Source of the DNA: a virus
Strand: one strand, 5' to 3'
Length of the DNA stretch: 64,000 bases
Virus record (IMG/VR): IMGVR_UViG_3300011254_000489
Span: 23,024-87,023 of that record
How positions within the stretch are numbered: the first letter of the stretch is position 1; every line of letters begins with the position of its first letter. Below the pieces are notes generated by a model. That model worked only from the letters and a program-made list of their open reading frames with translations. It had not been told where the DNA came from and made no database searches. The position numbers and the translations under genes were made by a program. Positions 17,116 through 49,765 of this stretch are shown here, piece by piece.

Positions 17116-17246
17116 TGTTTATCTCTCCCTATTAAAAACATTCTTGCTTCAATAGCCTTAGTAATACAGGGGTCACACACTTTGTATTTCCCGCATCTTA
17201 GTCCTCTTGATTCAGCATTCTCTTCTCTACACATATCGCACTTCAT
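17112..17246 (-). CDS. Small zinc-finger protein (44 aa)
   Basis: MKCDMC...VCDPC; ATGA overlaps on both sides. Confidence 0.6.
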   Translation of the reverse strand: MKCDMCREENAESRGLRCGKYKVCDPCITKAIEARMFLIGRDKQ

Positions 17247-17665
17247 TCAATCACCTCCTGTAAAACTCCTAATGATAATATATAATTAATGAACTCATTA
17301 GAGCGTTCATTAATGCCTATTGTTGAAATGTAGTTGGCGTTTGTTTGTGCGATTGCAGTTGTGGCGAATCTTTTTCCTCTTTCGCTTTCACGAATCCATA
17401 CATGTTCTAGCGCACGGTATTCATCGTGTAGGTATTCCACAGTAAGAAAGCCTATGGTTTCATGCTCACCTTCAAAGCCGGAATAATGATGTTCTTCATT
17501 TTCCCAAGTTTCCTTGTAGATGAAATAAAATTCATTTTCACAGAAATGGTGTATTACTTGTTCCTTATGAAAATCCTCTTTCCATTCTTCGTATAAGTCA
17601 ATAAATGATATTAGGTCATCCCCAAACCTACAGTCTGCTTTTCTAATAAAAACTTCTTCAATCAT
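17243..17665 (-). CDS. GNAT-family acetyltransferase
   Basis: IGFL...LEHVWI.ESERGKRFA motif A (R/QxxGxA-like). Confidence 0.6.
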   Translation of the reverse strand: MIEEVFIRKADCRFGDDLISFIDLYEEWKEDFHKEQVIHHFCENEFYFIYKETWENEEHHYSGFEGEHETIGFLTVEYLHDEYRALEHVWIRESERGKRFATTAIAQTNANYISTIGINERSNEFINYILSLGVLQEVIE

Positions 17666-17835
17666 TCTTTCACCATCTTTGTAATTCCTAATATTTTCAT
17701 CGCTTCTCTAATATGATGGTGTGCTGATTGTAGTTCTTCAACGATTACTTGAGGGGTGTCCGTTGATAGTTGCAAGCAACTGTTCCATAATTCAAATTCC
17801 GCCATTCTTAATAATTCTTCTAATTCTAATTTCAT
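17662..17835 (-). CDS. Hypothetical protein (57 aa)
   Basis: MKLELEELLRMAE...; ATGA overlaps on both sides. Confidence 0.55.
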   Translation of the reverse strand: MKLELEELLRMAEFELWNSCLQLSTDTPQVIVEELQSAHHHIREAMKILGITKMVKE

Positions 17836-18659
17836 TGTTTCATCTCCTCAATCTCTTTTTGAAAGTGTATTGTCTTCAACCTAACCTCTTCTTTAAATTG
17901 AATTTCATCAATTTTACCCCAAAGTTTTTCAGCGCATTCATCAATCATTAAAATATTCATTAGGTCATATTTAGTTAAGTCGCTAAAATAATATAGAGTT
18001 ATTTCTAATAATTTATTCATAGAAACATGATAATTAGGGTTAAGTATCCTACTATGTGCGCCCGATTCTACTAATTTAGAATACAGTATTTCATGATGAG
18101 GAAAAAATCCCTCTTTAATTTTAAAGTAATTTTTAATTTGCTTTTGTTTGTGTGCGAACTTATATTCAGTTTCATAATCTAAAGCATAGAATACATATTT
18201 TTTATCGGGATGATTTTCGGGTAAGTGGTATTGTTTAGTATCCTGTTCTGTAGCAGTAAAAAAACCGTGATTGTATATTTGGGCTTTATTACTAATCCAA
18301 CACCAATATTCAAGCCCGTATAGATTTTCGCTTTCTTTATGACAGGTTTTACATAACATATGTAAATTACATATGTCATCGGAACCTTCTACCGATTTAG
18401 CAAGAATATGCGCTCTCTCTAAGTTGGTGTTTGCACTAACTCCACAAGCCATGCAACCTTGATTTATTCTAACACCTTTCTTGTCTTTAATAAGGCAATT
18501 AAGATAACTTCTATTTAAAATATGACTTAAAGAACAATTTTCCCAATATTGATAAATCGCATGTGGCTTTGGAGCAATGTTTTTTCGGTGAGTAGTTACT
18601 AGTCTACCCATAATATCAATTTCTCCTTTTTCTAAATGTCTTGTATTCAATTTATTCAT
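17832..18659 (-). CDS. HNH endonuclease, putative homing endonuclease
   Basis: CMACG...ERAHI...GSD...NL..LC..CH; visibly more AT-rich than neighbours. Confidence 0.8.
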   Translation of the reverse strand: MNKLNTRHLEKGEIDIMGRLVTTHRKNIAPKPHAIYQYWENCSLSHILNRSYLNCLIKDKKGVRINQGCMACGVSANTNLERAHILAKSVEGSDDICNLHMLCKTCHKESENLYGLEYWCWISNKAQIYNHGFFTATEQDTKQYHLPENHPDKKYVFYALDYETEYKFAHKQKQIKNYFKIKEGFFPHHEILYSKLVESGAHSRILNPNYHVSMNKLLEITLYYFSDLTKYDLMNILMIDECAEKLWGKIDEIQFKEEVRLKTIHFQKEIEEMKQ

Positions 18660-20419
18660 ACTTCCATCTCCCTTGCCTTAAATGCGGCTAATCTAATTGC
18701 CTCTCTTGCGCTCGCAGTAATGCTAGCGGCTAGGTCTTTGTTACTCCAACCGAACCCTCTAAAAGCAAGGATTCCGTAGAACGAAGCCATCAATCTCTTG
18801 ACGGCCATTTGGTTGTTATTCCACTTGACATACTCTTCTTTATCGTCACCATCTCTAGCAACCTTCATCTTCTTCTTGTAGTCGTTTCTCAAGTCCTTGA
18901 GAGCCAACAAAGAGCGAGGGAGAAGGCCCAATTCATCAGTCTTGAAGTATAGCATGTTAGGCTCATAGTCCACCGATACAGGGCGTAGATTTTGTGGTGT
19001 ATTCAAATCAGCACCAAAAGCAGTGGGTATTTCGCTGATGGTTTCAAAACTGATGTTCCTAGCGATAATCATTGAAGGATAGAGGCCCGCAAAGTCAAAC
19101 GCCGCCACATTAAGATGTAGTCCATTCGTACCTTCATCCAATGGATTGTAAATCATAGCACCCGAATAAGACAAAGATGCACCGCACTTTTTACATTCTT
19201 TCAGTTGTTTATCTTTAGGATTTTCGTATCCGCAATCATCACACTTCTTTGTTTTCAATCTAACACCTGTCTTACATTTCCAACTAGCATTGTTCATAAA
19301 GTAAATACTACCCATGTGGGAAGCATAGAAACAAGACTCAAAAGGAGCCACTAGCAATCTTTGTAAGGATATAATAGCCTCACTGCAATGGTTTTCCTCG
19401 TCTATCTTTCTTAGTAATTCTACATCTATGATAGTGTATTGTAAATAAGAATATTTATCTTCTAACCAAGCCCTTGAATAAAACTCATTAGGGTCAGTAA
19501 ATTTAGTTTCAATATATTTACCTTCACCGAATAGTGTTTTAGAAACATAGTCCAAAGCAAGACTTGGTAGTGTTCCTCTTTGTGCATCATTCCATTGTCG
19601 CTCAAAAGCAACATCAAGATTTAAGTTAATCATACCTTTAACGGGTTGTGCAATAGGAGAATAGCCTCCACTTTTAGTAAACTTTAGACCGTCTAGACTT
19701 TCTTCTATTCCATCAATAACATTCATTGGAGAAATACTTCTAGGGTCAATTTCATTAGCAATACATCGTCCTAATAGTTTAGGTAGGTCAAACTTAAGAC
19801 CAAACCAAGCAACCATCATATCGGGTTTTTCTTCCGAAAGAAAAGCAATAAACTTAGTTAGCATTTCCGCTTCGGAAGTACTGTAATCAAGAACGCTAGT
19901 ATAACCATCTACTGATGGCTTAGTAACTTTAGCAAACGATTCTTTAGGATACCATACCCACACATGGAAGTTTTTAGAGAAGTTATCGTAAAGAGCAATA
20001 GCAGTAATCTTACCATCATGTACTCCGCCTTGCATCCATTCCATATCCCAATAATACTTCTTTAGGGTGTACGGTTTCATAACATCTAAAGAATCAACTG
20101 CGTAGCGATTAACTAATGAAACATCTGCTTCATATGTCATATCACCTAACTTGGGATGCTTAAATGGCTTCCTAGCACTATCTACATGAGATGGCTTCTC
20201 GTAGTAAACTCGCTTTAGTTTAGTACCATCAATAGAAAACCATTCGCCCTTTACATAGGAAAAGTCCCTTCTTAGCATACCTACACTATATTGAGCAGGT
20301 TCTCTGTAAGAATCCGGTACATAAAAATAAGGAGCAAAGTCTACTAGTTCTGTAGACAATTCTCCTTGTTGGTTTCTATTAGATGTGTATATTGTATTTT
20401 CATAATTAGCAATTATCAT
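18656..20419 (-). CDS. polB: Family B DNA polymerase, N-terminal subunit (3'-5' exonuclease, motifs A and B)
   Basis: WDMEW, AWFG.KFD, Y...D exo motifs; DFAGLYPS motif A; Q.AVK.LMASFYG motif B. Confidence 0.92.
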   Translation of the reverse strand: MIIANYENTIYTSNRNQQGELSTELVDFAPYFYVPDSYREPAQYSVGMLRRDFSYVKGEWFSIDGTKLKRVYYEKPSHVDSARKPFKHPKLGDMTYEADVSLVNRYAVDSLDVMKPYTLKKYYWDMEWMQGGVHDGKITAIALYDNFSKNFHVWVWYPKESFAKVTKPSVDGYTSVLDYSTSEAEMLTKFIAFLSEEKPDMMVAWFGLKFDLPKLLGRCIANEIDPRSISPMNVIDGIEESLDGLKFTKSGGYSPIAQPVKGMINLNLDVAFERQWNDAQRGTLPSLALDYVSKTLFGEGKYIETKFTDPNEFYSRAWLEDKYSYLQYTIIDVELLRKIDEENHCSEAIISLQRLLVAPFESCFYASHMGSIYFMNNASWKCKTGVRLKTKKCDDCGYENPKDKQLKECKKCGASLSYSGAMIYNPLDEGTNGLHLNVAAFDFAGLYPSMIIARNISFETISEIPTAFGADLNTPQNLRPVSVDYEPNMLYFKTDELGLLPRSLLALKDLRNDYKKKMKVARDGDDKEEYVKWNNNQMAVKRLMASFYGILAFRGFGWSNKDLAASITASAREAIRLAAFKAREMEV

Positions 20420-33095: not shown

Positions 33096-33650
33096 TCAAA
33101 CATTTATCACGGCAAAGCCGTTTACTTCTTCATCATTAAACCAACGCTGAATCCATTCAGCACCCATTCCTGCAATAGCAACCTGTAAGAAATGTACTCC
33201 TTCTGTAGAGCCATCCCATGAATCACCTTGACAGGAAAAACTACCATCCGGCCCTGCTAGCATAGTATCATACATTTTAGGGTCGGCCTTGTAGGATACA
33301 TAGGCGGCGTTCCTTGCTTGGGAGCGAAGGTCTAGCCACGCTATGTTTGAACGGTATAGCATCCTTCGTGCGGATAGATTATCCACACAACATACTACCA
33401 AATCATATCCTTGTATTTGCCCGTCTGTTAGGATAGGGAATTTACTTGGACTGATGGGATACCTCTTTTGTAGGGCCATCACTTTCAATTCACCCACTTC
33501 ATCTTCCGTGAAGTTTTGGTAAGGTAGGTTCTTTGTATCTACGGTGTCGGGGTCACTTACGCTAATCGTGTAAAGGCCCGTCTTATCTAGTAGTGGGATT
33601 AGAAAACTTCCAATTCCACCGGCTCCAATTATCAATATTTTTCTATTCAT
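33096..33650 (-). CDS. ThiF/E1-like ubiquitin-activating (adenylation) enzyme
   Basis: IGAGGIGS, D.D.V...NL..Q, G..K, VCCVDN..AR. Confidence 0.88.
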   Translation of the reverse strand: MNRKILIIGAGGIGSFLIPLLDKTGLYTISVSDPDTVDTKNLPYQNFTEDEVGELKVMALQKRYPISPSKFPILTDGQIQGYDLVVCCVDNLSARRMLYRSNIAWLDLRSQARNAAYVSYKADPKMYDTMLAGPDGSFSCQGDSWDGSTEGVHFLQVAIAGMGAEWIQRWFNDEEVNGFAVINV

Positions 33651-33909
33651 TTTTATTCCTCCAATCTTCAAATGCTGATTGTGATTCTTTCATGGTATAT
33701 GACATACTTATCATACTAGCAAGTCCTCTGTATAATTCATCTTGAATTGACGCATCAAACTGAGAAAACAGTGGGGCTAACATCATTCTAGTTGCCGTCA
33801 CATAACAATTACATTCACGACAAACTCTATCTTCAAACTTAGTTAGAATCGGTTGAGGGTTATTCCCTTCCCAAGTCTCCATTTCTTTTTCACATATTTT
33901 ACATTTCAT
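33643..33909 (-). CDS. Zinc-finger protein
   Basis: CKIC...GNNP.P...C..CN motif. Confidence 0.6.
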   Translation of the reverse strand: MKCKICEKEMETWEGNNPQPILTKFEDRVCRECNCYVTATRMMLAPLFSQFDASIQDELYRGLASMISMSYTMKESQSAFEDWRNKNE

Positions 33910-33910
33910 A

Positions 33911-34735
33911 TTACCATATCCATTGTGTTCCTTGTCCTTTTATTTCGGACTCTGTTTTACCTACTGTTCGTAGGAGTTTTTTTGTTGTATCTCTACAAGT
34001 GCGACTAGTCACACCTACAACATCACCAACTTCTTTTTGAGTTAGTTGTTTAAATTCGCAAAGATTTGCTATGTAGAGTATCCCCGCTACTGCGCTTTTA
34101 TTTAGAGTAAGAGTACGCATTTCGTATTCCCTCTCAAAGAAGGAAAGTAACATACTACAGGTACTAGCAAAATACCTGTCCCCTAATTGAAGGGAATACT
34201 TCTCTACCAAAGAATCAAGAGATTGAATAAAGACTCCACTATTCTTAAAATGCTTTGAAATCTTCTTGGCTACTTTAGCAACCAACCTTTGGTTAGAGCC
34301 GTACTCAGCACAGACTTCTTTTAGAGTGAAGGGCAGATTTCTTTCCCTTAATACATAATACACCAAAGCACTAGCCCTATCTTCATAAGTAGATTGACTA
34401 AATATCCCTGCTCTAAAACAAGTCATGTAGGCGTTTTCTACTCTCTCCATTTGGCTCTTTGAATTAGTCAAAGAAGACATTAACATTTTAGAGAAACCCA
34501 AACCTACATCAACATGGCTTCGCTTACCCCTTTCGTATCTATGAACGGGCCTAGAGCCTAGAGTTCTATCTCCATGCCTAATAATTTCTCCATCATGAGT
34601 AAATAGAGAAACCGTTTGGTCAAAGGGTTCAGTTACTACAATCAACCCACAGTCTTGACATTCCTTCTCGCCCATGTATTCGTTGTACGAAAAAACAGTA
34701 CTGTTACATTCAGTACAATTAATCAAGGTTCTCAC
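33911..34735 (-). CDS. tfb: Transcription initiation factor B (TFB/TFIIB) homologue
   Basis: N-terminal zinc ribbon CTEC...GE..C.DCG.V; two cyclin repeats; C-terminal HTH TQKEVG.VVGVT..T. Confidence 0.88.
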   Translation of the reverse strand: MRTLINCTECNSTVFSYNEYMGEKECQDCGLIVVTEPFDQTVSLFTHDGEIIRHGDRTLGSRPVHRYERGKRSHVDVGLGFSKMLMSSLTNSKSQMERVENAYMTCFRAGIFSQSTYEDRASALVYYVLRERNLPFTLKEVCAEYGSNQRLVAKVAKKISKHFKNSGVFIQSLDSLVEKYSLQLGDRYFASTCSMLLSFFEREYEMRTLTLNKSAVAGILYIANLCEFKQLTQKEVGDVVGVTSRTCRDTTKKLLRTVGKTESEIKGQGTQWIW

Positions 34736-36429: not shown

Positions 36430-36636
36430 TCAACAGGAACCTCCAACAATAGCAGGAGTCAAGTCCACGCTACTAACAGTATCCCAATTGATTGTGTTAA
36501 TGTCTTGGCGGCTTACCATCTCACCATCAACGAAAACCCAATGTGTGGGGTGTGTTTCAATTTGTTCTACAACCTTCTCTACTGAGAGTTGCAATTCAGT
36601 GTGTCCTGTTTCATTTAAAATCGTTAGTGTAATCAT
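36430..36636 (-). CDS. Ubiquitin-like beta-grasp protein (SAMP/ThiS/MoaD-like) with C-terminal GG plus SC extension
   Basis: 68 aa; VFVDG and V.L.PAIVGG terminal strand typical of ThiS/MoaD/SAMP; GAGGTGA RBS; E1 and JAB nearby. Confidence 0.75.
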   Translation of the reverse strand: MITLTILNETGHTELQLSVEKVVEQIETHPTHWVFVDGEMVSRQDINTINWDTVSSVDLTPAIVGGSC

Positions 36637-38657: not shown

Positions 38658-38744
38658 TGGTGTCGGAGGCAGGATTTGAACCTGCGAATCAATATGAACA
38701 GGAGTTTAAGCCCTGCGCCTTTGACCAAACTCGGCTACTCCGAC
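38658..38744 (-). tRNA. tRNA-Leu(TAA)
   Basis: GTCGGAG/CTCCGAC acceptor stem, anticodon loop CT-TAA-AC, long variable arm, GGTTCAAATCC T-arm, encoded CCA. Confidence 0.9.
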
Positions 38745-38750
38745 TTGAAT

Positions 38751-38825
38751 TGGCGGGCATAACAGGAATTGAACCCGTATCTTCGGCTTAGAAGGCCAAA
38801 ATGCTATCCATTACACCATATGCCC
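38751..38825 (-). tRNA. tRNA-Arg(TCT)
   Basis: GGGCATA/TATGCCC acceptor stem, anticodon loop CT-TCT-AA, GGTTCAATTCC T-arm, encoded CCA. Confidence 0.92.
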
Positions 38826-40081: not shown

Positions 40082-40386
40082 TCTTCATCACCTACCATTT
40101 CTACCAATGCTTCAATACCAAATCGCTCAACCATTAGGTCAAGGTGGTGGTTCGTTTCTTCAAACAATGCTCGTAGTCGCTTGACTTCTGCAAGGAGGAG
40201 TGGTGCGTCGGCCATGATTCGTAGGTTAGCCTTTTCCTCTTTGGTTATTAGTTGGTCTTTGTTGTAATTCCAACAAGGGTATTCCGCTATGATTTCATTA
40301 CCGCCTTTAGCAGTAGCATGAATAGTAGCACTGTCGTATTCCCACGGCCCTTCTGTGTGTCCTTCGTATTTATCTGTGTCAATCAT
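40078..40386 (-). CDS. HT.GPW...ADAP.LL family phage protein, paralogue 2
   Basis: MIDTDKYEGHTEGPW...ADAPLLLAEVKRL. Confidence 0.65.
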   Translation of the reverse strand: MIDTDKYEGHTEGPWEYDSATIHATAKGGNEIIAEYPCWNYNKDQLITKEEKANLRIMADAPLLLAEVKRLRALFEETNHHLDLMVERFGIEALVEMVGDEE

Positions 40387-40628
40387 TCAATCCTCTCCCA
40401 CAATTCATCTATGAGTGCTTTCCAAGCGGGGTCTGCGTCAGCCATTTTATACAATCTGTCAAACGCCCGCTTGTATTTCTGCAACCGCTTGACTTCTGCA
40501 AGGAGAAGTGGTGCGTCTTGCATCAAGGTCTTATCAATCCCTTTCAATTCCTCAATGGTAAAGTAACCACTAAGAATACCATCCCACGGCGCAGGTGTGT
40601 GTCCTTCGTATTTGTCTATGTCAATCAT
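40383..40628 (-). CDS. HT.GPW...DAP.LL family phage protein, paralogue 1
   Basis: MIDIDKYEGHTPAPW...QDAPLLLAEVKRL. Confidence 0.65.
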   Translation of the reverse strand: MIDIDKYEGHTPAPWDGILSGYFTIEELKGIDKTLMQDAPLLLAEVKRLQKYKRAFDRLYKMADADPAWKALIDELWERIE

Positions 40629-40741
40629 TGTTCATCACCCCGACTACCTGCCCAACCGCAAGAATAACAAGAATAGTAATTCTTATCTTCGTGTTGTTCA
40701 GCCATCCCTTGACAACCTTTTCCATTACATTTTATTTTCAT
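40625..40741 (-). CDS. Small zinc-ribbon protein (38 aa)
   Basis: MKIKCNGKGC...CYSCGW; ATGA overlaps. Confidence 0.5.
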   Translation of the reverse strand: MKIKCNGKGCQGMAEQHEDKNYYSCYSCGWAGSRGDEQ

Positions 40742-41099: not shown

Positions 41100-42533
41100 T
41101 TACTGTGGACTAGGCCCACAATAAAATAAGTTTCGCTTTGCTCTTGTTATTGCAACATAGCAAATGTTTCGTTCTTCTTGTGGATTAGTTGCTCTCGGAT
41201 GAGGCATCCTTTCCGTAGCCAAAAGATATACATTATCGGCTTCAAGACCCTTTGCTTTGTGTACTGTGGACAACATAATGTCACCCTTACCATCGGAAGA
41301 AAAGACTCGGTTAATCTCATCAATAATTCCTTGAACAGTGTTTGCCTTACCAACAAATATACTCAAGCAATTGTATTTATCTTCTAGTGCAAGTGCTTGA
41401 TTCTTTTTCTCTTTCAAGAGAAGTCTTTCTGTCTCTTTACTAAAGTGCTGATTCAACAACAGGTTGAACTCACTTGAAGACATTCCCATATTCTTACGGG
41501 AAACTTTCTTCACATAGTTTGTTAGTCCCTTTGTCATGTCACGCCCTAGAATATAAGCCGACTTTCCATCAGCCAATAAACTATAGAACGCAGTAGCGAG
41601 AGGTGCATTATAACGACACAAAACAATGTCGCCCTTGATTGGATTAAGGCTAGCAAATTCTTCTACACTACCTTCTTCCGCTTCATCTCTACAAGTGAAA
41701 TCTTTTACGAATCTGTTTGCTTCCTTTACAACAGACTTAGGGCAACGCCATGTTACGCTAAGTGGGAACTTACTAACTTCCCTATTGCTCGTCTTTAACA
41801 AATCTTCAAAGATTTGCATACTAGAAGAATCTGCTCCACGGAAACCGTAAATTGCTTGGTTAGGGTCGCCTACTACAATACATCGGCCATCCGGTTCAAC
41901 ACTACGATAGATTAGTTGTCGTTGTGCTTCATTGAAATCTTGTGCCTCATCAACAAACAATACATCATACTTTTCCAAAGGAAGATTGTTCACTAGAGGA
42001 ATCCAAATCATATCATCAAAATCAATAGTTGATGAATTCATACTCAACTTCATAATTTGAGGTAGAGCATCAAAAGCCAACACTTCATCATGGTCTGTAT
42101 CAAAGTTAATATTGTAAGAATCAACCAACTTAGCGATTGACTTCCTATCACTACCTTCAATCATAGCACCCTTCATTAGAGATACTAGTTTAGCCAAAGG
42201 CACTGCGAAATAATCCGCACCTAGAACCTTTTTGATAATGTTATATGTCTTGGACTTGTCCATCTTAGTTCGCCCATTTTGCTTAATTGCTCGGAATCCC
42301 ATTGAATGAAATGTCGCCGCATAAACATCTTCGGGAAGACGCTTACCAAGTGTTGTTGCAATACTCTTATTGAATGCTAAGAAAGCCATCTTACCGGACA
42401 TTCTTTTTGCACCTTCTACAATAGTGAAGGTCTTACCAACACCTGCTCCTGCATCAACTACAACATGGTTTTCACCATGCTCCATTTCAGCCCAAATGTC
42501 TTCTTGTTGTTGTGTGCCTACAATTACCATCAT
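41100..42533 (-). CDS. uvrD: UvrD/Rep-family superfamily 1 helicase
   Basis: AGAGVGKT, AFN, TFHS, VDEAQD, VGDPNQAIYGFRGA, STVHKAKGLE, YVAITRAK. Confidence 0.92.
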   Translation of the reverse strand: MMVIVGTQQQEDIWAEMEHGENHVVVDAGAGVGKTFTIVEGAKRMSGKMAFLAFNKSIATTLGKRLPEDVYAATFHSMGFRAIKQNGRTKMDKSKTYNIIKKVLGADYFAVPLAKLVSLMKGAMIEGSDRKSIAKLVDSYNINFDTDHDEVLAFDALPQIMKLSMNSSTIDFDDMIWIPLVNNLPLEKYDVLFVDEAQDFNEAQRQLIYRSVEPDGRCIVVGDPNQAIYGFRGADSSSMQIFEDLLKTSNREVSKFPLSVTWRCPKSVVKEANRFVKDFTCRDEAEEGSVEEFASLNPIKGDIVLCRYNAPLATAFYSLLADGKSAYILGRDMTKGLTNYVKKVSRKNMGMSSSEFNLLLNQHFSKETERLLLKEKKNQALALEDKYNCLSIFVGKANTVQGIIDEINRVFSSDGKGDIMLSTVHKAKGLEADNVYLLATERMPHPRATNPQEERNICYVAITRAKRNLFYCGPSPQ

Positions 42534-42790
42534 TCAACACCCAACCCAATATCATACATTTCTTTGTGTTCTAGAACATCAACCCATCCGTTATTTACCG
42601 GAGAATATAATTGCTTTCTAACTGAACCATCTTTCATAATATAGAGGCAAACAAAACCCGACTCATCTTGATAATTACACATCAAGGAATTGTCCGGCCC
42701 TGCATACCACCTATCTTCAAATGTCCATCCTACTCCACCTACGGCGAAGTGTCGTTCTTGCTTCTCGTTTATTTCTATTATTATTTGCAT
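42530..42790 (-). CDS. Hypothetical protein, first gene of the minus-strand block
   Basis: Start refined to MQIII after GGAGGT RBS. Confidence 0.5.
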   Translation of the reverse strand: MQIIIEINEKQERHFAVGGVGWTFEDRWYAGPDNSLMCNYQDESGFVCLYIMKDGSVRKQLYSPVNNGWVDVLEHKEMYDIGLGVE

Positions 42791-42959
42791 GTTTCTACCT
42801 CCTATCAAGGGTGAGAGTAGGGCCACACTAAATAAATTAGTGATTATCTTAAAAGGCTCCATAGCCCTACTCTCTGTCTCTAAGGGATAAACCCCGATTG
42901 AGACACCTAGACCTCCCGATTTGCTTTATAAGGGTTTAGGGGCCATTTCGGGTTAAAGA

Positions 42960-43490
42960 TATTGGAGAAAAAGTATAGCATTATCAAAATACCATTGAAC
43001 TAAATAGTACTAGCATCTTTACTACTTAGGTAAGACAAAACACCAATAGTATTTTTTTATGTAAAATATTGTTATCTTAATTATTATCATATTATTCTCT
43101 ATTCGTAAACGAAGCACTGCTCCATAATTCTCATTATTCTCATTTTTCTCTAGGGGTGTCAATTTCTCACACCCCCATATGAGAATAATGATAAAGATGA
43201 GAATTGAAAAATGCTCTTTAGATATATGATAATAATGATAATATGATAATAATATATTAAAATATACTTATTTTCTTCAAAAAGACACTTTTTGCCCATT
43301 TATTATTCTCACTTCGGATGAGAATAACATGAGAAACTCAAAATTCCACACATATATGTTATATACATAAGCACAATTGAAAACCTGTAAAACAATATCA
43401 AGCAATAACAAACACAATAAAAAGGAGAGTTATCAAGGAAGGATAGTTATGTGATTTAGGTATTATGCGTAAGACGCTTTGTAGATGAGC
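42960..43490. other. AT-rich non-coding region with iterated GAGAAT/GATAAT motifs between divergent blocks; candidate replication origin or genome-end region
   Basis: No ORF; direct and inverted ATGAGAA(T) copies at about 43129-43145, 43179-43204 and 43303-43336; TATGATAATAATGATAATATGATAATAATAT run. Confidence 0.45.
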
Positions 43491-43523
43491 ATTAAATACC
43501 CTACCGTGATTCTTGGTTGTCTT

Positions 43524-43539
43524 AACCCACCACACACGG
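43524..43539. repeat. Left arm of 16-bp inverted repeat flanking the 43562-44092 gene
   Basis: AACCCACCACACACGG is the exact reverse complement of 44125-44140. Confidence 0.85.
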
Positions 43540-43561
43540 AAAGATAAGGAAAGGTGAAAAT

Positions 43562-44092
43562 ATGCCCACAAAGAAAGAAACGAAAACAGAAACCGAAACT
43601 AGCGAAGCGGCTCAAGCCGTGGATTATTCAAAATATACCGCCCGATTGGGTGACATTCAAGGAGTCCTTGAACAGGCTCCAAACGCCAAACTTCAAATGG
43701 CGGTGGATGACATCAATAAGGTTATTGAACAACAACTTGATGAAAAGTTGTGCATTCAACTAATTGGTGCATTGAAGACCTACATTCAACTTGAAGGTGA
43801 AGCCGGAGCAATTTACGCTGACGCTATGCCTCAACGACTACGCTCAAGCGACCCACTCGCTCAAGCACATTATACACGAATTGACAACGAATTGAATACA
43901 TTGATGGACGATAACTCACCACTTCTTGAAGTGATGTTTAGTCTTAAAATCGGTATGCGAGTTAAGGAAGGAGAAGTACCCACCCTTGACGACTACCGTT
44001 CAACACTACGAAAGAAGAACCGAGCCGTGAACAAATACAACAAAACCGCTTCAACTACTGCTCAACCAACGGAGGAATCAAGCGAGGCTTGA
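43562..44092 (+). CDS. Hypothetical early protein (176 aa)
   Basis: GGTGA RBS; own promoter-like motif and downstream hairpin. Confidence 0.7.
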   Translation: MPTKKETKTETETSEAAQAVDYSKYTARLGDIQGVLEQAPNAKLQMAVDDINKVIEQQLDEKLCIQLIGALKTYIQLEGEAGAIYADAMPQRLRSSDPLAQAHYTRIDNELNTLMDDNSPLLEVMFSLKIGMRVKEGEVPTLDDYRSTLRKKNRAVNKYNKTASTTAQPTEESSEA

Positions 44093-44124
44093 AGCCCGCT
44101 TACCCCATGAACTAAACCCCTAAG

Positions 44125-44140
44125 CCGTGTGTGGTGGGTT
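44125..44140. repeat. Right arm of 16-bp inverted repeat flanking the 43562-44092 gene
   Basis: CCGTGTGTGGTGGGTT. Confidence 0.85.
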
Positions 44141-44144
44141 TAAG

Positions 44145-44182
44145 GCTCCATTATGGCCCCCCTACGGGGGGGTTAAGTGGGG
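44145..44182 (+). terminator. GC-rich hairpin after the 43562 gene
   Basis: CCATTATGGCCCCCC-TAC-GGGGGGGTTAAGTGG. Confidence 0.5.
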
Positions 44183-44201
44183 TTGTGTCTAGTCATTACC
44201 C

Positions 44202-44243
44202 CAAAGATTATCATTAAGACACAACCATATGGTATGTACTTTG
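44202..44243. repeat. ACCATATGGT palindromic element, copy 1
   Basis: CAAAG...ACCATATGGT(44224-44233)...CTTTG. Confidence 0.75.
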
Positions 44244-44280
44244 AACATACCCTACTTGAACATAACGGGGAAGGTGGGGT

Positions 44281-44589
44281 ATGATGATAGATTTCAGCCT
44301 TGAAGAATTAAATGCAGACGAAGTGAAAGTAAACTACCAAACTAATTTAAGTGGTAGAGCAATGAACATAAGGACGACTTATTTTTTTACTTCCGTGGAA
44401 GATTATTGGTCAGCATACGACCTATTAGTAAAGCACAAACTAACCGATGGCTTCCAATTCCACTTTGACCAACGAAACGATAAGAATGTAATAGTTAGCA
44501 TGACAGAAGTTTCATTAGAATGGTATAGAAAAGAACAAAAACGAAAACAAGAACAGGGGGATTCACTGAGTAGTGAAATCAATGAGTAA
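44281..44589 (+). CDS. Hypothetical protein
   Basis: GGTGG RBS; follows palindrome plus ACCCTA motif. Confidence 0.6.
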   Translation: MMIDFSLEELNADEVKVNYQTNLSGRAMNIRTTYFFTSVEDYWSAYDLLVKHKLTDGFQFHFDQRNDKNVIVSMTEVSLEWYRKEQKRKQEQGDSLSSEINE

Positions 44590-44697
44590 AGCGAACCCAT
44601 ATCTAGACATATGGGATTTCTTTACTGTTGAGTCGTCCACTACCCCCCCTACTACGAAGACGACAACAATTAAAGCAATCAAACAAGAGGAATAAAA

Positions 44698-44871
44698 ATG
44701 AAAAAAGAAACAGAAGCAAAACTATACGAACTATTAGACTATCTAACTAGAACACTAAAATACTACAGTATGAATGATGACCATTGGAAAATATCACTTA
44801 GCCTAACAAGGCACACTGCAAGAGAACTAATCCCATTAGCGGAAAAAGAGTTGGAGAGTGAAGAAGAATGA
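44698..44871 (+). CDS. Hypothetical protein (57 aa)
   Basis: GAGGA RBS, MKKETEAKLYELL...; ATGA overlap. Confidence 0.55.
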   Translation: MKKETEAKLYELLDYLTRTLKYYSMNDDHWKISLSLTRHTARELIPLAEKELESEEE

Positions 44872-45260
44872 CTAGATTTCTAACACACAAAGAATTTATG
44901 GAAATGACTGACCATTGGAGTTACATAGAACAAATAGCGTTTTTATTAGAGGATAGCGAGGTTCTAGATGCTATTTTAAAACACATAGAATGTTCATGGA
45001 ATGGTCGTTACGCATTCGTTAATCGTGAAACTAATGAAGTAGAAAAGGAAGACATTTACCATGTTACAGAGGAAGAAGTTAAGATTCAAGAAGATAAGAA
45101 CAAACTCACGGAGGCAATGCTCTTGCGTAAGCAGTTAGATAGTCTAAGAGAGTTTTGTCATAAAGAAGATTATGACATTTACGATTGGGAAGTAAAGAAG
45201 ATAGAGGTGATTAGAATAGAGACAGAGGAATGTGTCTTTGAAGAGTATTGGGAGGCTTAA
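44868..45260 (+). CDS. Hypothetical acidic protein
   Basis: ORF coupled to upstream gene. Confidence 0.6.
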   Translation: MTRFLTHKEFMEMTDHWSYIEQIAFLLEDSEVLDAILKHIECSWNGRYAFVNRETNEVEKEDIYHVTEEEVKIQEDKNKLTEAMLLRKQLDSLREFCHKEDYDIYDWEVKKIEVIRIETEECVFEEYWEA

Positions 45261-45399
45261 TCTTGGCTGAAATACAGACTCCACAGGGAACTGCGACCCT
45301 GTTATATGTTGCAGAGAGTGACGGCATTATTGAGATAGTCTTTTTAATAGATTAATTAATATCCCCTTTAGTCGGCTTTAGCCGATTATCGGGGTATCC

Positions 45400-45433
45400 C
45401 AAAGTAATACCATATGGTTGTACTGATACTTTG
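45400..45433. repeat. ACCATATGGT palindromic element, copy 2, between convergent hairpins
   Basis: CAAAG-TAAT-ACCATATGGT(45409-45418)...CTTTG. Confidence 0.8.
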
Positions 45434-45506
45434 ACAGAGGTAAAAAACCCTAAGAGGGGTCGTAAGACCCCCCTTAAGACGATTATTTTTTGTGCTTATT
45501 CGCCCC

Positions 45507-45728
45507 TTACATTTTCCCCTCTCTAATCTCTTCTAAACGATTCTGTTCATTAGTAAAGAGTATTGCTTCTTCTACATTGTCAAAATATCTACAAGCCGTA
45601 GGGTAATTCAAGGCCATAACTACCCAATTGATGCTAACTATCATGCTATGATAGTACCATTTTCTTATGCCCGTTATTTCATCTTCTATATTGGATGCTG
45701 ACCAAAGCGTTATTGTTTCTCTTTGCAT
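45507..45728 (-). CDS. Hypothetical protein
   Basis: AAGGAG RBS. Confidence 0.55.
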   Translation of the reverse strand: MQRETITLWSASNIEDEITGIRKWYYHSMIVSINWVVMALNYPTACRYFDNVEEAILFTNEQNRLEEIREGKM

Positions 45729-45995
45729 TTTAATTTCTCCTTATGATATGTTGAATGGGATACCCTCACTGACCGCAACTCTTTATTTAATTCCACCTTG
45801 TCTGTGCTAATTCGTTTACTACTAAGTGTTCTTGGGCTAACATTGTCTAGAATATTGCTTTCTCTCTTAGGTTCACTACTGTTTCCACTACTCGGCGCGA
45901 TTCTCCGTCGTTATTGGGTTCTTTTCCGAAGGTGATTAACTAGTATTCGCCTTCGTACACCCAAGCCAACTACATTTCTTTAGATAAGGTAGCCA

Positions 45996-46024
45996 CAAAG
46001 TTACTACCATATGGTTTGGCTTTG
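45996..46024. repeat. ACCATATGGT palindromic element, copy 3
   Basis: CAAAG-TTACT-ACCATATGGT-TTGG-CTTTG. Confidence 0.8.
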
Positions 46025-46061
46025 ATGAACCCCGAAGGGGGCTTTCGCCTAGTATTTTCCC

Positions 46062-46349
46062 TTATTCTACCTTGATAAGTGAACCGTCCCACAATTCACC
46101 GTTTAAGAACCATTGAAAATTCTTCTGCACGATATGAACATTAGGAAGGCCGTTCAAGCGTTCCTTTGTGGTTGTGGTTGCCCATCCTGCCGAAGTAATA
46201 AACAAACCATCAGCGTCAAGGGTTGCGATTACATGCCCATGAAGCAAAAGATAACTGCTTTTGCCTGTGACTACGACTTCACTATTTCCTCGCTTGAATT
46301 TTTCTCTATTCCTAAAAGCCCTTATTGCGTCCTCTGTTATCTTTCGCAT
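46062..46349 (-). CDS. Conserved-looking phage hypothetical protein
   Basis: LHG..IA...GW.T.TTKERLN.L...QK...W motif common in phage early proteins. Confidence 0.65.
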   Translation of the reverse strand: MRKITEDAIRAFRNREKFKRGNSEVVVTGKSSYLLLHGHVIATLDADGLFITSAGWATTTTKERLNGLPNVHIVQKNFQWFLNGELWDGSLIKVE

Positions 46350-46350
46350 T

Positions 46351-46482
46351 TCAAACACTCTCTCTGTTGCTTTTACAAATAGCACAATTCTTCAAATTAA
46401 ACATATGGCTAAATTGCGTACAGTTGGTCGTAACTATACCGTAATACTTAGCCATTATTTTTATTTCTTCAACATTCTTCAT
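46351..46482 (-). CDS. Small hypothetical protein (43 aa)
   Basis: GGAGAG RBS, C...H...C..C. Confidence 0.4.
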   Translation of the reverse strand: MKNVEEIKIMAKYYGIVTTNCTQFSHMFNLKNCAICKSNRESV

Positions 46483-46535
46483 TTTTATCTCTCCGATTAA
46501 CCTAGTAAATTAATACTGTTTAGATAGGGTATGAC

Positions 46536-46564
46536 CAAAGTGCCTACCATATGGTTGCACTTTG
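46536..46564. repeat. ACCATATGGT palindromic element, copy 4
   Basis: CAAAGTGC-CT-ACCATATGGT-T-GCACTTTG, near-perfect 29-bp palindrome. Confidence 0.85.
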
Positions 46565-46573
46565 ATGCACACC

Positions 46574-46600
46574 TTATGACTCCCATAAAGGGAGCCATAA
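46574..46600 (-). terminator. Hairpin after the 46656-47171 gene
   Basis: TTATGACTCCC-ATAAA-GGGAGCCATAA. Confidence 0.5.
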
Positions 46601-46655
46601 TGGAGCCTATTGGGGAAGTTAGACTGACTAATAATTTCTAAGAGGCCTTAGCCCC

Positions 46656-47171
46656 TCAGTTGTCCTCCTGTGCGGTTTCGTTTAATTCGTTAATGTGTGA
46701 CTCGTAGTTGGTCGTTAGACTTTCCAACTGTCCGTCCCAAACCTTGTTCTTGAAGTCATCTTCAAGTCGGCGTGTGGTAGAGTTGTAAAGGAAATCAACA
46801 AGGGTTTCCTCTGTGTAGTAAACGATGTTCTCTTTGTTCTTCTTTCGGAAAAGATACACTAGAGCGTCGGGGTAGTAGTTTAGACCTGCGCCAACAAAGG
46901 AAGTAATGCTATCCTTAATTGCAGTAAAGGCAGGACTTAGTGCGTTGTTTGCATCTCGTTGTCCCGACTTAGGCAAGTAATCCCCGTACCCATGAAGGGT
47001 TGCAGTAGTACGACAAGCCGCATACAATGATGCTCGTAGTTTGTCGTCAATTGTGGTTAAAAGACAGTCTTCAACGGCCATTACGACTCGTTGATTTGCG
47101 TCCTTACCTTCCTTCTTCAATTGAGCCGATAGTGGCTCTAGTCTGTTCGTTATTCTTTCTAAATTTGACAT
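46656..47171 (-). CDS. Hypothetical early protein (171 aa)
   Basis: GGTGA RBS; flanked by inverted repeat GGGGAAGTTAG (46612-46622) / CTAACTTCCCC (47194-47204). Confidence 0.7.
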   Translation of the reverse strand: MSNLERITNRLEPLSAQLKKEGKDANQRVVMAVEDCLLTTIDDKLRASLYAACRTTATLHGYGDYLPKSGQRDANNALSPAFTAIKDSITSFVGAGLNYYPDALVYLFRKKNKENIVYYTEETLVDFLYNSTTRRLEDDFKNKVWDGQLESLTTNYESHINELNETAQEDN

Positions 47172-47248
47172 GATATTTCACCTTCCGTCTGTGCTAACTT
47201 CCCCGTTAGACACCCAACTAATCGCATACTATTCATAGGGTTGTAGCC

Positions 47249-47273
47249 CAAAGTACTACAACCATATGCTTTG
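47249..47273. repeat. ACCATATGGT palindromic element, copy 5 (degenerate)
   Basis: CAAAG-TACTACA-ACCATATGCTTTG. Confidence 0.6.
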
Positions 47274-47464
47274 CATCCAATTTTTATTTTTATTTATTAC
47301 TGTTTTACGGTATTAAAAGTACTATTTCCGGTAATAAACGGACTATTTGCATACTATTAATACTATTTTAGTAATACTATTACCACTATTCGGGGTAGTT
47401 TCGCCACAGTACAATTTGGGTTAAGGTTATATCTTGATGGCCTCTGCGTCTATTTAGTGACGGC

Positions 47465-47671
47465 ATGAGTAACACGGCGGAAATGCTACAGTTATTCTTA
47501 GAGATTAAAACAGAATTACAAGAAGTTATTAGTAGACTTAACAATAAGAAAGATACAATAGATAGCGAAATACTAGTTAGAATAGTTAAAGATATTAATA
47601 AGTTAAAGATACTAATAACACAAATACAAGAAGAACGCAATCCAAAACAAAAACAATTAGGAGATTATTAG
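47465..47671 (+). CDS. Hypothetical coiled-coil protein
   Basis: 68-aa ORF. Confidence 0.5.
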   Translation: MSNTAEMLQLFLEIKTELQEVISRLNNKKDTIDSEILVRIVKDINKLKILITQIQEERNPKQKQLGDY

Positions 47672-47780
47672 AATAAATAGTATTAATTTTATCCTGTAAA
47701 TACATTAAATAGTAATAAAAAAGGCGGTATAGTGATAAAAAAATTCCGAGTGATTTTTGAAATATTTTTAGGTGATTAAG

Positions 47781-48218
47781 ATGAGTTGGTGGAATATAAT
47801 AAAAACCGACTTTGGTTCGTTTGACTTGAAGGGATTAAATTTTCCAAGATTGGCTGAACTTTTACAATTTTATGATATGTTGGAAAAGGAGATGGTGGAA
47901 AGAGAAGATGTTAAAGACTACCCCGATGTGGATTTCTACACCGATGAAGTTATGGCTGGGGACGCAATAGGCTACATAGAAGATAATTTTATGAACGAGT
48001 CGGGTTCCGTGTCTTTAAGTCTATCCGTGGCGTTGAATCTTTTCAGTAGAATAAAAACTTACGGTGGGGAAAACTTTGAAATGCTTTGGAAAGAACTTAA
48101 CGATGAAACCATTAAATACTTTCTTTTAGGATTTTTAGGAAGGGCTGAAAGGGCCGGTGTTGTGGACATTCGGGGTAAATTAAAAACCGCCGTTGATAAT
48201 TTTTCAAGAGATGTTTAA
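47781..48218 (+). CDS. W-tag family protein (MSWWNIIK)
   Basis: GGTGA RBS; shared N-terminal motif. Confidence 0.65.
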   Translation: MSWWNIIKTDFGSFDLKGLNFPRLAELLQFYDMLEKEMVEREDVKDYPDVDFYTDEVMAGDAIGYIEDNFMNESGSVSLSLSVALNLFSRIKTYGGENFEMLWKELNDETIKYFLLGFLGRAERAGVVDIRGKLKTAVDNFSRDV

Positions 48219-48229
48219 GGGGTGCAAAT

Positions 48230-48583
48230 ATGGGTTGGGAAAATGTATTGAAGGTCTTTGGTGAGTATGGCTTTCCCGAAGGGGATGAGCGTAATGAGCA
48301 AACACGGAAAGCAAAAGAAAAATTTGCTAAAAACTCAATGGAAGTTTTGACAGGCCTTGCCTTTTCCTTAGAAACAATAGACGATTTAGAAGTAATAACG
48401 CAAAAACCTATTGGGTATCTTTTTGAAGAACTTGCTAAGTTATTAGAATTGAAAGCCGATTATTTAGAAGAAATTGCAGAAATTGAGGGAGATACTTTAT
48501 CTTCCCGAAGAGTAAGACCTAGTTTACAAGCATCCGAAAATAAAATGCGAGAATTGGCGAAAAAATTCCGAGCAAAATTTTGA
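48230..48583 (+). CDS. W-tag family protein (MGWENVLK)
   Basis: Shared N-terminal motif. Confidence 0.65.
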   Translation: MGWENVLKVFGEYGFPEGDERNEQTRKAKEKFAKNSMEVLTGLAFSLETIDDLEVITQKPIGYLFEELAKLLELKADYLEEIAEIEGDTLSSRRVRPSLQASENKMRELAKKFRAKF

Positions 48584-48603
48584 GAAAAAAAGAGATGATT
48601 GAC

Positions 48604-49179
48604 ATGACATGGAAAGATATAATAAAAGCACAACTAGCGATTTTAGATAGAGAAGATGCTAGAGATTTAATGAGACAGTATCGGGGAAAACAGGCAAAGG
48701 CACTTGGAAAAAATATTGCTTTAATTCAACAGAACCTACCCGATGTAGTTAAAGAATTTAAAATAATGATGGATAATCCCGTTAAGGGCTATGATGGTAT
48801 TCCTTCATATAATACAGTTGATGCTACGGCAAATATAATTCTTGTTATTGATTACAAACAAATGAATTGGAATATTAACAGTAATAAATTTGGTGGCTAT
48901 GATGAATCTTATTATGGATTAGATAGTACACTAGAAGAATTATTCCGAGGGAATCCTTTATCTTTTCGGAATCCTTTATCATCCACTAGCGAAGGCGGGG
49001 TAAGAAACCGAAAAAGAAAAGACACCTTTACCGAGAAAGGAGAAATAGTATCCTACCAAAAAACCTTCCCGTTCAAAGTAGAGTTTGATGCGTCAAAACC
49101 AATGCTATTCGGTGCAGAAAAACTAATTGATTTTTTAGATGAGTTAGAAGATTTACTAGATAGGGAAGTTAGTCCTTGA
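48604..49179 (+). CDS. W-tag family protein (MTWKDIIK)
   Basis: Shared N-terminal motif; start refined. Confidence 0.65.
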   Translation: MTWKDIIKAQLAILDREDARDLMRQYRGKQAKALGKNIALIQQNLPDVVKEFKIMMDNPVKGYDGIPSYNTVDATANIILVIDYKQMNWNINSNKFGGYDESYYGLDSTLEELFRGNPLSFRNPLSSTSEGGVRNRKRKDTFTEKGEIVSYQKTFPFKVEFDASKPMLFGAEKLIDFLDELEDLLDREVSP

Positions 49180-49193
49180 GAAAGGTGATTATT

Positions 49194-49451
49194 ATGACAT
49201 GGAAAGATGGAATTAAAAAAGAAGCGGCGGATTTTTCAAGAGGAATGGAAGCGGCAAAAAGCCTTGCTAAAAACCACGACCATGCCTCATGGTTTCAAGT
49301 TGAAAATGACGATGAGTTTATGGCGAAATTACAGAAGCGTTTTGATGAATCCTATGAGAAATACGGTGGGCAGGACATTAATGTTCGTGTTTTGATTAGG
49401 AGTATAGGGCAACTTAATGGTGCTTTTTTACATCTAACAGAGGATGAGTAA
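49194..49451 (+). CDS. W-tag family protein (MTWKDGIKK)
   Basis: GGTGA RBS; shared motif. Confidence 0.65.
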   Translation: MTWKDGIKKEAADFSRGMEAAKSLAKNHDHASWFQVENDDEFMAKLQKRFDESYEKYGGQDINVRVLIRSIGQLNGAFLHLTEDE

Positions 49452-49453
49452 TT

Positions 49454-49765
49454 ATGACATGGAAAGATGAAATTAGGAAAAACATATTTGAAAAAGACCC
49501 CGAAGACATGACTGCTTTTATGAATGTCAGTCCTCGGATGAAGCAAGAGGCTAAAAAGAAACAAGATAGCCTAAAAAGTGGTTTTAAAAACAATCAAGAA
49601 AACTATGAGACGGTTTTAGAAGCAATTGAGCGATTAATGGGATTAAAGGATTCAATTACTAGAGGTATGAAAGAATCTGAAGATGAGCAAATCAATGAAG
49701 ATGAGATGAGAAAAATTGCTATGGCTCTCAATAAAGCGGCTCAACAGTTAGAATCTTACTACTGA
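49454..49765 (+). CDS. W-tag family protein (MTWKDEIRK)
   Basis: Shared motif; 19-nt start region identical to previous gene. Confidence 0.65.
   Translation: MTWKDEIRKNIFEKDPEDMTAFMNVSPRMKQEAKKKQDSLKSGFKNNQENYETVLEAIERLMGLKDSITRGMKESEDEQINEDEMRKIAMALNKAAQQLESYY

Follow-up and report, generated by a model that had tools for sequence, protein, structure and literature searches.

We describe an array of small gene units, separated by a repeated composite DNA element, in a 64,000-nucleotide stretch of a viral genome (bases 23024-87023 of the 87,023-bp record IMGVR_UViG_3300011254_000489, which is rated complete). This stretch is hereafter called the window, and positions are numbered from its first letter. 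The repeated element, which we call a joint, is built on a perfectly palindromic 10-bp core, ACCATATGGT, flanked by CAAAG and CTTTG boxes and, on some of its sides, by a promoter-like ACC(C/T)TA box. Joints are conserved across a clade of related viruses; their promoter-like boxes go with the 5' ends of genes, the arms of the hairpins beside the core covary, and breakpoints between related genomes are concentrated in the palindrome. The array region is a hyperplastic accessory-gene region of self-contained units, each with a predicted promoter, one to four small genes and a hairpin at its end. By analogy with the promoter-early stem-loops (PeSLs) of T4-type phages (Arbiol et al., 2010, PMC2839356; Comeau et al., 2014, PMC4122927), we consider it probable that the joints are regulatory sites common to the units that double as recombination points, which would make them an archaeal-virus counterpart of PeSL cassettes.

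The genome encodes tailed-virus morphogenesis proteins (portal, prohead protease, capsid, tail tube and terminase) and an archaeal-flavoured replication set comprising a split family B polymerase, an RFC-like clamp loader ATPase, an ATP-dependent ligase and a chaperonin, as well as ERCC4/XPF, PD-(D/E)XK and HNH nucleases and two ligases in all. The family B DNA polymerase occupies two open reading frames (ORFs) of 587 and 301 amino acids (16213-20419, minus strand), with an HNH endonuclease gene and small ORFs between them. In the description that we follow, magroviruses combine tailed-virus morphogenesis genes with an archaeal-type replication set that includes a chaperonin, and PolB is split in their group B (Philosof et al., 2017). 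The gene set matches this description, and the genome thus fits a magrovirus, a tailed virus of marine group II archaea. A nucleotide search of named phage records returned zero matches, the neighbouring helicase matches bacterial phages only, at no more than 34% protein identity, and a scan of cellular genomes with the viral chaperonin found no cellular relative. Magroviruses count among the surface ocean's most abundant viruses; to our knowledge, their marine group II hosts have never been cultured. Genes run leftward from ~42.9 kb down to 10.2 kb (the replication arm) and rightward from ~47.5 kb (the structural arm); the 4.5-kb switch region that separates the two arms holds the array.

A preliminary description of this DNA had placed five copies of the palindrome at unit boundaries. 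Copies 1-4 (joints P1-P4) are exact copies of ACCATATGGT and stand where it put them, at 44224, 45409, 46006 and 46546. Copy 5 (P5), at 47261, reads ACCATATGCT, which is one mismatch from ACCATATGGT because the CTTTG box overlaps the palindrome there. The four exact copies are the only ones in the whole 87,023-bp genome, all within 2.3 kb, and the reversed control sequence has none. With up to one mismatch allowed, the window holds nine matches, compared with a mean of 2.04 and a maximum of 7 in shuffled sequence (0 of 100 shuffles reached nine); besides copies 1-5 these nine include four one-mismatch matches, at 24211, 37607, 60796 and 60903, which lie away from the array and look like chance. 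The flanking boxes are likewise present, CAAAG at 44202, 45400, 45996, 46536 and 47249 and CTTTG at 44239, 45429, 46020, 46560 and 47269. A search for the ACC(C/T)TA motif as CTTTG-N2-8-ACCYT[AT] gave seven sites genome-wide, of which five belong to the array (44239 and 46560 on the plus strand; 45985, 46525 and 47236 on the minus strand); 20 crude shuffles averaged 1.55 sites, with at most 5 in any one. As first described, copy 2 stands between convergent 3' ends and has no promoter box. Two points are new here: copy 4 is boxed on both sides, and the stretch from core to box is itself a hairpin, GGT-N-[CTTTG loop]-N'-ACC. The hairpins reported at the unit boundaries were recovered beside each of copies 1-4, and none folded beside copy 5; measured against 200 shuffles, two are strong (z about -4.2, with 0/200 shuffles folding as well) and two moderate (z -2.0 to -2.4), and a hairpin at 46028-46043 is no better than shuffled sequence (z -0.16). 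The stretch 42500-48500 has no Rfam match at E up to 1.

The palindrome array is a trait of the whole clade. Relatives were fetched by the neighbouring helicase, so as not to select by the motif, giving 78 loci, 62 of which have at least 49% helicase identity; 48 of these near relatives include at least 3 kb of upstream DNA. Exact cores, 2-11 per locus, are found in 47 of the 48, always 1.3-7.4 kb upstream of the helicase. The exception, locus L197, has no exact core and seven one-mismatch variants; it carries six copies (2531-6815) of a fused form in which CAAAG directly abuts CATATGGT, each with ACCAC at the box position and TATATAT directly after it, a natural variant that helps to assign the parts of the joint. 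The remaining 14 near loci have too little upstream DNA, and 13 of them show zero cores and one a single core. In none of the 78 loci does a core occur in the helicase gene or up to 10 kb downstream of it (~1 kb in a few short loci), and the 16 distant relatives (36-41% identity) have no core at all. A scan of viral contigs for the core followed by N4-5 and CTTTG found at least 165 stretches, and many of the matches listed were contigs of 60-96 kb with 3-11 clustered copies.

The promoter-like box is linked to gene starts. We examined 255 unique joints with gene calls that take account of the Shine-Dalgarno sequence, the virus having strong ribosome-binding sites; the calls are crude, and 59 of the joints fell inside a called ORF. 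Of the sides that carry CTTTG and ACCYT[AT], 67 face the 5' end of a gene, 17 a 3' end and three neither. Sides with CTTTG only are divided between 5' ends (72) and 3' ends (82), and sides with the variant ACCCCR, which runs into UUCG-type hairpins of the converging transcript, face 5' ends in nine cases and 3' ends in 31; across the side classes other than the boxed one, 23-47% are 5'-facing. Of the 65 joints that have a single boxed side, a 5' end is faced by that side in 51 and by the unboxed side in ten. Each box thus goes with the gene next to it on that side; the same counts rule out a box that drives transcription across the palindrome. The position after the box is A or T in 86% of cases and the next five in 65-69%, compared with a window average of ~63%. 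Given the link to gene starts, this A/T-rich stretch and the TATATAT of L197, the ACC(Y) box and the TA-rich stretch behind it are read as a predicted archaeal promoter of the B recognition element (BRE)/TATA type. With such a promoter, CTTTG would fall near -45 and the palindrome near -55, some 50-60 bp upstream of where transcription starts. The archaeal-type genes for TFB, RFC and family B polymerase also argue for a promoter type other than sigma-70; sigma-70, Bacteroidota-type and T7-type promoters were judged by eye and dropped, no sigma-70 layout having fitted. In the replication arm no repeated promoter was seen, and the repeats there are ribosome-binding contexts.

Comparison among related viruses indicates that units are gained, lost, moved and flipped at the palindrome. 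Units occur in both orientations, as had been described for the window, and across 45 arrays, with 0 to 11 exact copies each, the same gene families recur in differing order and orientation (families 2, 7, 20, 24, 25, 44 and 57). For instance, the family of a 107-amino-acid protein resembling Kyano_Gp96 lies leftward in the window and in L170, L172-L174, L200 and L219, and rightward in L178, L179, L182, L196, L199, L201, L207, L214, L215, L217 and L222-L225. Of 306 ends of blastn matches, 39% are no more than 30 bp from a core, compared with 9.6% for random points. Where another genome contains the two 120-bp flanks of a joint, these are adjacent (collinear) there in 75 cases and non-adjacent in 24; the same test at cassette midpoints gave 230 adjacent and five non-adjacent. 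Among L222, L223 and L224, whose helicases are 83-86% alike, one block has moved, and at the L222/L224 junctions the homology changes inside the core, the left flank coming from one joint and the right flank from another. L190 and L191 (helicases 95.8% identical) are one 702-bp unit apart, with a joint at each end of that unit in L190 and a single joint in L191. The nearest relative of the window, L170 (~92% identity), is collinear and has the same joints; it lacks a 73-amino-acid ORF, keeping that ORF's leader, and shows two other indels, all of them inside units. Collinearity at ~92% identity implies that unit turnover is slow. The relatives thus neither lack the motif nor keep a fixed synteny. 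Of the earlier proposal of an integron- or shufflon-like cassette array, the cassette behaviour holds over evolutionary time, with breaks at the palindrome; the integron or shufflon system with a recombinase of its own finds no support.

The hairpins beside the core covary. In each, the GGT of the core and the bases next to it pair with the bases up to and including the ACC of the box, leaving CTTTG in the loop. Within the window this hairpin reads GGTATGT[aCTTTGa]ACATACC at P1 (44231-44251), GGTATT[..]GATACC at P2, GGTAGT[..]GCTACC at P3 and, on the right of P3, GGTTTG[gCTTTGa]TGAACC (46013-46031). Across the clade, 74 of 400 sides have at least six consecutive pairs around the CTTTG loop, compared with 5.6% when 3' halves are swapped between sites. 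In a fixed register, which covers 150 of 347 distinct sides, 57.5% of cells pair, compared with 47.1% in shuffles, and the covariation score of these 150 sides is 0.352, compared with 0.221. All slid registers were beaten, and none of 500 shuffles reached the pairing or the covariation value, a count that is not a probability because the sites are related to one another. Within the stems, on the strand reading outward from the core, G.T juxtapositions outnumber A.C ones by 36 to 5, which suggests that the outward-reading strand folds. Because it stands upstream of the presumed promoter, the hairpin would not form part of the transcript of its own unit.

In the account that we favour, the palindrome would be the binding site of a dimeric factor that governs all units together. 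Its position ~50-60 bp upstream suits an activator or recruiter better than a repressor, and the factor could be the host's, because viruses with helicases no more than 55-60% alike have an identical core. The repeated joints would serve at the same time as short patches of homology, and general recombination or template switching at them would lead to the deletion, insertion, movement or inversion of units. Since the core is palindromic, joints could pair in either orientation, giving inversions as well as deletions. The presence of promoters inside the units and the slow turnover make general recombination or template switching the simplest account of the shuffling, and joints stranded between convergent gene ends, such as copy 2, would be expected by-products.

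That no recombinase is visible, as was reported for the window, extends to the whole genome: Pfam and PHROG searches of greedy non-overlapping ORFs of at least 45-60 amino acids across the 87 kb found no integrase, invertase, transposase or HUH domain, a negative that leaves room for a very divergent enzyme. In cellular genomes, a pattern scan gave, among the matches listed (at least 120), only single ones, in unrelated bacteria and a few archaea. The core ACCATATGGT is not enriched in 401 genomes from the phylum of one of these archaea, recorded as Methanomethylophilaceae (0-18 per genome, compared with 0-44 for the reversed control, with no clusters listed), a sample that may not hold the hosts and in which a small host regulon would escape notice.

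The virus does encode a TFB/TFIIB homologue of 274 amino acids (33914-34735, minus strand), located in the replication arm, with a CxxC-x15-CxxC zinc ribbon and two cyclin repeats. In the PDB it matches Pyrococcus TFB (E ~1e-7 with the single sequence, 9e-12 with a profile); its four zinc-ribbon cysteines are invariant, and its database relatives carry PF00382 and PF08271. The gene callers behind the protein database start it 20 residues late, which loses the first CxxC. Within the DNA examined, the gene is found in 55 of the 62 near relatives and in none of the 16 distant ones, and it evolves fast, being 27-38% identical among most relatives. The viral TFB, tied to the joints by their common clade only, is a possible player in viral promoter use; the main text of the magrovirus papers searched does not mention it. 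No RNA polymerase was found, and a 2104-amino-acid ORF considered as a candidate virion RNA polymerase is rich in serine, threonine and asparagine, has no polymerase match and gives that idea no support.

Several observations weigh against the account of a regulatory site doubling as a recombination point. The identity common to the joints is short, 10 bp and short boxes, and no candidate palindrome-binding protein was identified. The covarying hairpin is without a role in a simple model in which a factor binds duplex DNA, and the G.T excess points to a single-stranded function that this account leaves unexplained. On the promoter side, the weakness of the A/T-rich stretch after the box makes TATA a tentative assignment; the box as defined is absent from 107 gene-start sides (72 with CTTTG only and 35 with no CTTTG); and 29 of the 255 joints, counted among the 196 outside called ORFs, lie between convergent 3' ends, where no promoter is needed. 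The 59 joints inside a called ORF are what crude gene calling still leaves. The sole sequencing run listed consists of contigs whose status as RNA is a guess, sharing 0.05 of the sampled words; on the array region it supplies two contigs of ~500 nt over a 176- and a 171-amino-acid gene, without ends, which are evidence neither way. Because that run gives no transcript ends, we infer start sites, timing and promoter activity.

The breakpoints and the hairpins could also be explained by a dedicated site- or structure-specific system, like integron attC sites or a shufflon, in which the joint would fold as a single strand or cruciform and be cut and rejoined by an unrecognised enzyme, either a viral one (for instance the XPF/ERCC4 or PD-(D/E)XK nuclease with a ligase) or one of the host. 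Breakpoints inside the 10-bp core would suit such a system, as would arm covariation, in which structure is kept and not sequence, the G.T over A.C excess as a signal of a folded single strand, and a perfectly symmetric core that allows the two orientations in which units are found; the ERCC4, PD-(D/E)XK and HNH nucleases and two ligases are also at hand. As in attC arrays, small gene units are separated by imperfect-palindrome sites whose structure is conserved more than their sequence. Integron cassettes, however, are promoterless and lie in one orientation, whereas these units stand on both strands, each with a promoter-like box on its gene-start side; the core is invariant, there is no common Pc promoter, and no integrase (IntI) was found among the genome ORFs tested. 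Nor was an invertase domain, as expected of a shufflon-type switch, and inverted units are seen between diverged genomes only. With the other recombinase families equally missing from those ORFs, and with a nearest relative that is collinear, its indels inside units and turnover slow, we regard a dedicated system as unlikely. A bolder version, in which the joint is a folded-DNA device whose palindrome and two hairpins extrude as a junction-like structure read by a viral or host enzyme or factor, seems to us just as improbable; if true, it would couple the start of unit transcription to structure-specific cutting and rejoining, an attC-like mechanism without a known recombinase.

Conversely, the joints might be purely regulatory, an operator or upstream site with a promoter, at which homology seems to end because they are the sole conserved islands between fast-evolving units. 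This agrees with the association of boxes with gene starts, with an array that is fixed in position and with a nearest relative that is collinear, but conserved islands alone move no blocks: flanks are non-adjacent in 24 of 99 cases at joints and in 5 of 235 at midpoints, a block has been transposed with joints at every junction, and the indel between L190 and L191 runs cleanly from joint to joint, so that the purely regulatory reading is quite improbable. The virion RNA polymerase of phage N4 reads hairpin promoters; somewhat similarly, the CTTTG-loop hairpin might itself be a promoter or priming signal, extruded in single-stranded form and read by a viral factor such as the TFB or a primase. 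That the loop is conserved and its arms covary beside unit starts, the strand asymmetry and the clade-wide TFB homologue point that way; we nevertheless think it very unlikely, given that no RNA polymerase was found, that hairpins also stand on sides facing 3' ends, that TFB and array co-occur by clade and so offer no independent evidence, and that the TFB diverges widely among most relatives while the joint is invariant. The palindromes are least of all to be seen as origin-recognition or partition-type sites of a replication origin in the switch region. The minimum of cumulative GC skew in the window lies at ~44-48 kb and A/T-rich stretches with short repeats flank the array, but the skew switch coincides with the change of coding strand, and the sites, 2-11 in number, are spread over 2-6 kb, interleaved with genes, and track unit boundaries and gene starts.

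The regulatory and recombinational reading of the joints finds its closest parallel in the PeSLs, as the cited accounts describe them. In both cases small composite motifs of promoter and stem-loop are repeated between small, mostly uncharacterised genes of a hyperplastic region, the motif marks the limits of insertions, deletions and replacements between related viruses, and it is read as a regulatory cassette that also serves for recombination. PeSLs contain a strong sigma-70-like early promoter, whereas no sigma-70 layout could be fitted here by eye and the host is archaeal; the PeSL description has no counterpart of a perfect 10-bp palindrome that is invariant and has covarying hairpins on both sides, and the present units are also found inverted. 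The promoter and terminator activity of PeSLs, and mini-circles between neighbouring motifs, were demonstrated at the bench, whereas the present array is known from sequence alone. The two would work alike and not be homologous.

Two archaeal-virus systems offer further comparison. In the haloarchaeal myovirus HGTV-1, a TATA-like stretch plus an inverted repeat precede most left-arm ORFs and have been likened to PeSLs (Sencilo et al., 2013, as cited in PMC3950731). Compared by description only, that genome and ours are of archaeal tailed viruses with a repeated TATA-like and inverted-repeat motif before many small ORFs; the virus lineage and the host differ. Bhoobalan-Chitty et al. (2024, PMC11065993) describe one early-gene regulatory sequence before many small fast-evolving genes as a flag for anti-defence genes, and some of these early-gene sequences have inverted repeats thought to bind a repressor. 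The joints, as predicted regulatory sites, would share the principle of one common regulatory sequence before many small fast-evolving single genes. The motifs of that study combine a strong purine-rich BRE with TTTAWATA in Sulfolobales viruses and serve early expression, whereas here BRE and TATA are weak and the upstream palindrome and hairpins dominate; its main text does not mention magroviruses. In the main texts of the magrovirus papers searched we found no description of the palindrome system, nor any account of how these viruses regulate or rearrange their genes, and a full-text literature search for the decamer returned primers only. The array thus differs from its known analogues in the invariant perfect palindrome, the paired covarying hairpins, the weak core promoter and the inverted units.

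Within the window, the array opens with joint P1 (44202-44254, plus strand), which comprises CAAAG at 44202-44206, the core at 44224-44233 and the box ATACCCTA at 44247-44254, its promoter-like side facing right. Unit 1 follows (44281-45260, plus strand), with four small ORFs of 102 (44281-44589), ~38 (44582-44695), 57 (44698-44871) and 130 amino acids (44868-45260), which have zero family matches in Pfam and PHROG; one of the two strong hairpins lies at its 3' end (45359-45397, plus strand; z -4.2, 0/200 shuffles folding as well). Joint P2 (45393-45433) consists of a left hairpin (45393-45411) with CAAAG in its loop (45400-45404), the core (45409-45418) and CTTTG (45429-45433), and carries the variant ACCCCG where the promoter box would stand. 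A G+C-rich hairpin followed by a T run (45448-45479, minus strand; z -4.15) marks the 3' end of the 73-amino-acid ORF (45507-45728, minus strand), whose leader from P3 is ~255 nt long. P3 (45985-46031) has its promoter-like side facing left, with the minus-strand box CTACCTTA at 45985-45992, CAAAG at 45996-46000 and the core at 46006-46015.

The next unit (46062-46482, minus strand) contains a 43-amino-acid ORF (46351-46482) and the 107-amino-acid ORF (46062-46385), a member of Pfam Kyano_Gp96 (E 2.7e-17) and PHROG 554 and family 2 of our comparison. The two-sided joint P4 (46525-46576) has CAAAG at 46536-46540, the core at 46546-46555 and CTTTG at 46560-46564, with the box ATACCCTA on the minus strand (46525-46532) and ACACCTTA on the plus strand (46569-46576). 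Two hairpins (46572-46646) lie between it and the 3' end of the 171-amino-acid gene of family 0 (46656-47171, minus strand). The terminal variant P5 (47236-47273) carries the minus-strand box AACCCTA at 47236-47242, CAAAG at 47249-47253 and the core ACCATATG, overlapped by CTTTG, at 47261-47273, followed by a T-rich stretch; the same overlapped variant closes the array in L170, L222, L223 and L224.

Family 0 has 109 members in 45 arrays, with several paralogues per genome (six in L188); one conserved copy adjoins the helicase and the others are scattered in the array. Its proteins are helical, with the motifs P..R.G, H.KSGG and YK.G.WDG and an acidic tail. A structural model with a predicted local distance difference test (pLDDT) score of 85.9 found nothing in Foldseek at E <=0.001; the best VIA match had Z 6.6, to generic helical bundles, and Atlas matches were below 0.9.

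Between the array and the rightward structural arm lies an A/T-rich stretch with about six TACTATT repeats (47274-47400), which may hold the promoter of the rightward main operon or an origin. A second A/T-rich stretch, left of the array (42900-43560), has long imperfect inverted repeats and is a candidate origin or main-operon promoter. An element CTTTG-N15-ATACCCTA without a palindrome (43477-43504, plus strand), 57 nt before the 176-amino-acid gene (43562-44092), looks like a stand-alone promoter box. The 5' leader and 3' trailer of the 176-amino-acid gene contain a perfect 16-nt complement (43524-43539 and 44125-44140), so that the ends of its transcript could pair. A 38-bp stretch at the end of the 102-amino-acid gene (44583-44620) contains a split palindrome, CCCATAT-N6-ATATGGG; L222-L224 keep this stretch at 92% identity, whereas their neighbouring helicase gene shares only ~71% DNA identity with that of the window. 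A 19-nt inverted pair (44143-44161 and 46590-46608), 95% complementary, contains CCATTATGG, a relative of the core that is one base longer; one copy stands just outside P1 and the other just outside P4.

Elsewhere in the window, a 68-amino-acid protein ending in VGGSC (36433-36636, minus strand) is better conserved than any other small protein of the region, being present in 56 of 59 relatives at 70% identity. A ThiF/E1-like gene (33099-33671, minus strand; Pfam E 1.7e-16) lies 3 kb from it, and the two may be a ubiquitin-like modifier pair, a tentative reading based on the C-terminal GG. Genes for tRNA-Leu(taa) and tRNA-Arg(tct) (38658-38825, minus strand) are located inside the replication arm. 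At the head of the rightward arm, three consecutive ORFs (48580-49765, plus strand) begin with the same N-terminus, MTWKD(I/G/E)I(K/R)K, and are therefore paralogues. A tandem duplication of ~300 bp (40178-40629), with repeats 88-97% alike, has given rise to two small paralogous ORFs.

For magroviruses, the invariant and searchable joint would serve as a marker that lists the accessory genes, possibly for anti-defence or takeover, of every genome, and it is a defined DNA that could be used as bait to recover a transcription factor from an uncultured archaeon. If the joints act as we propose, promoter cassettes with a further role as recombination points would have a second and independent example, from a different domain of life, with covarying hairpins and a viral TFB as features outside the PeSL model.

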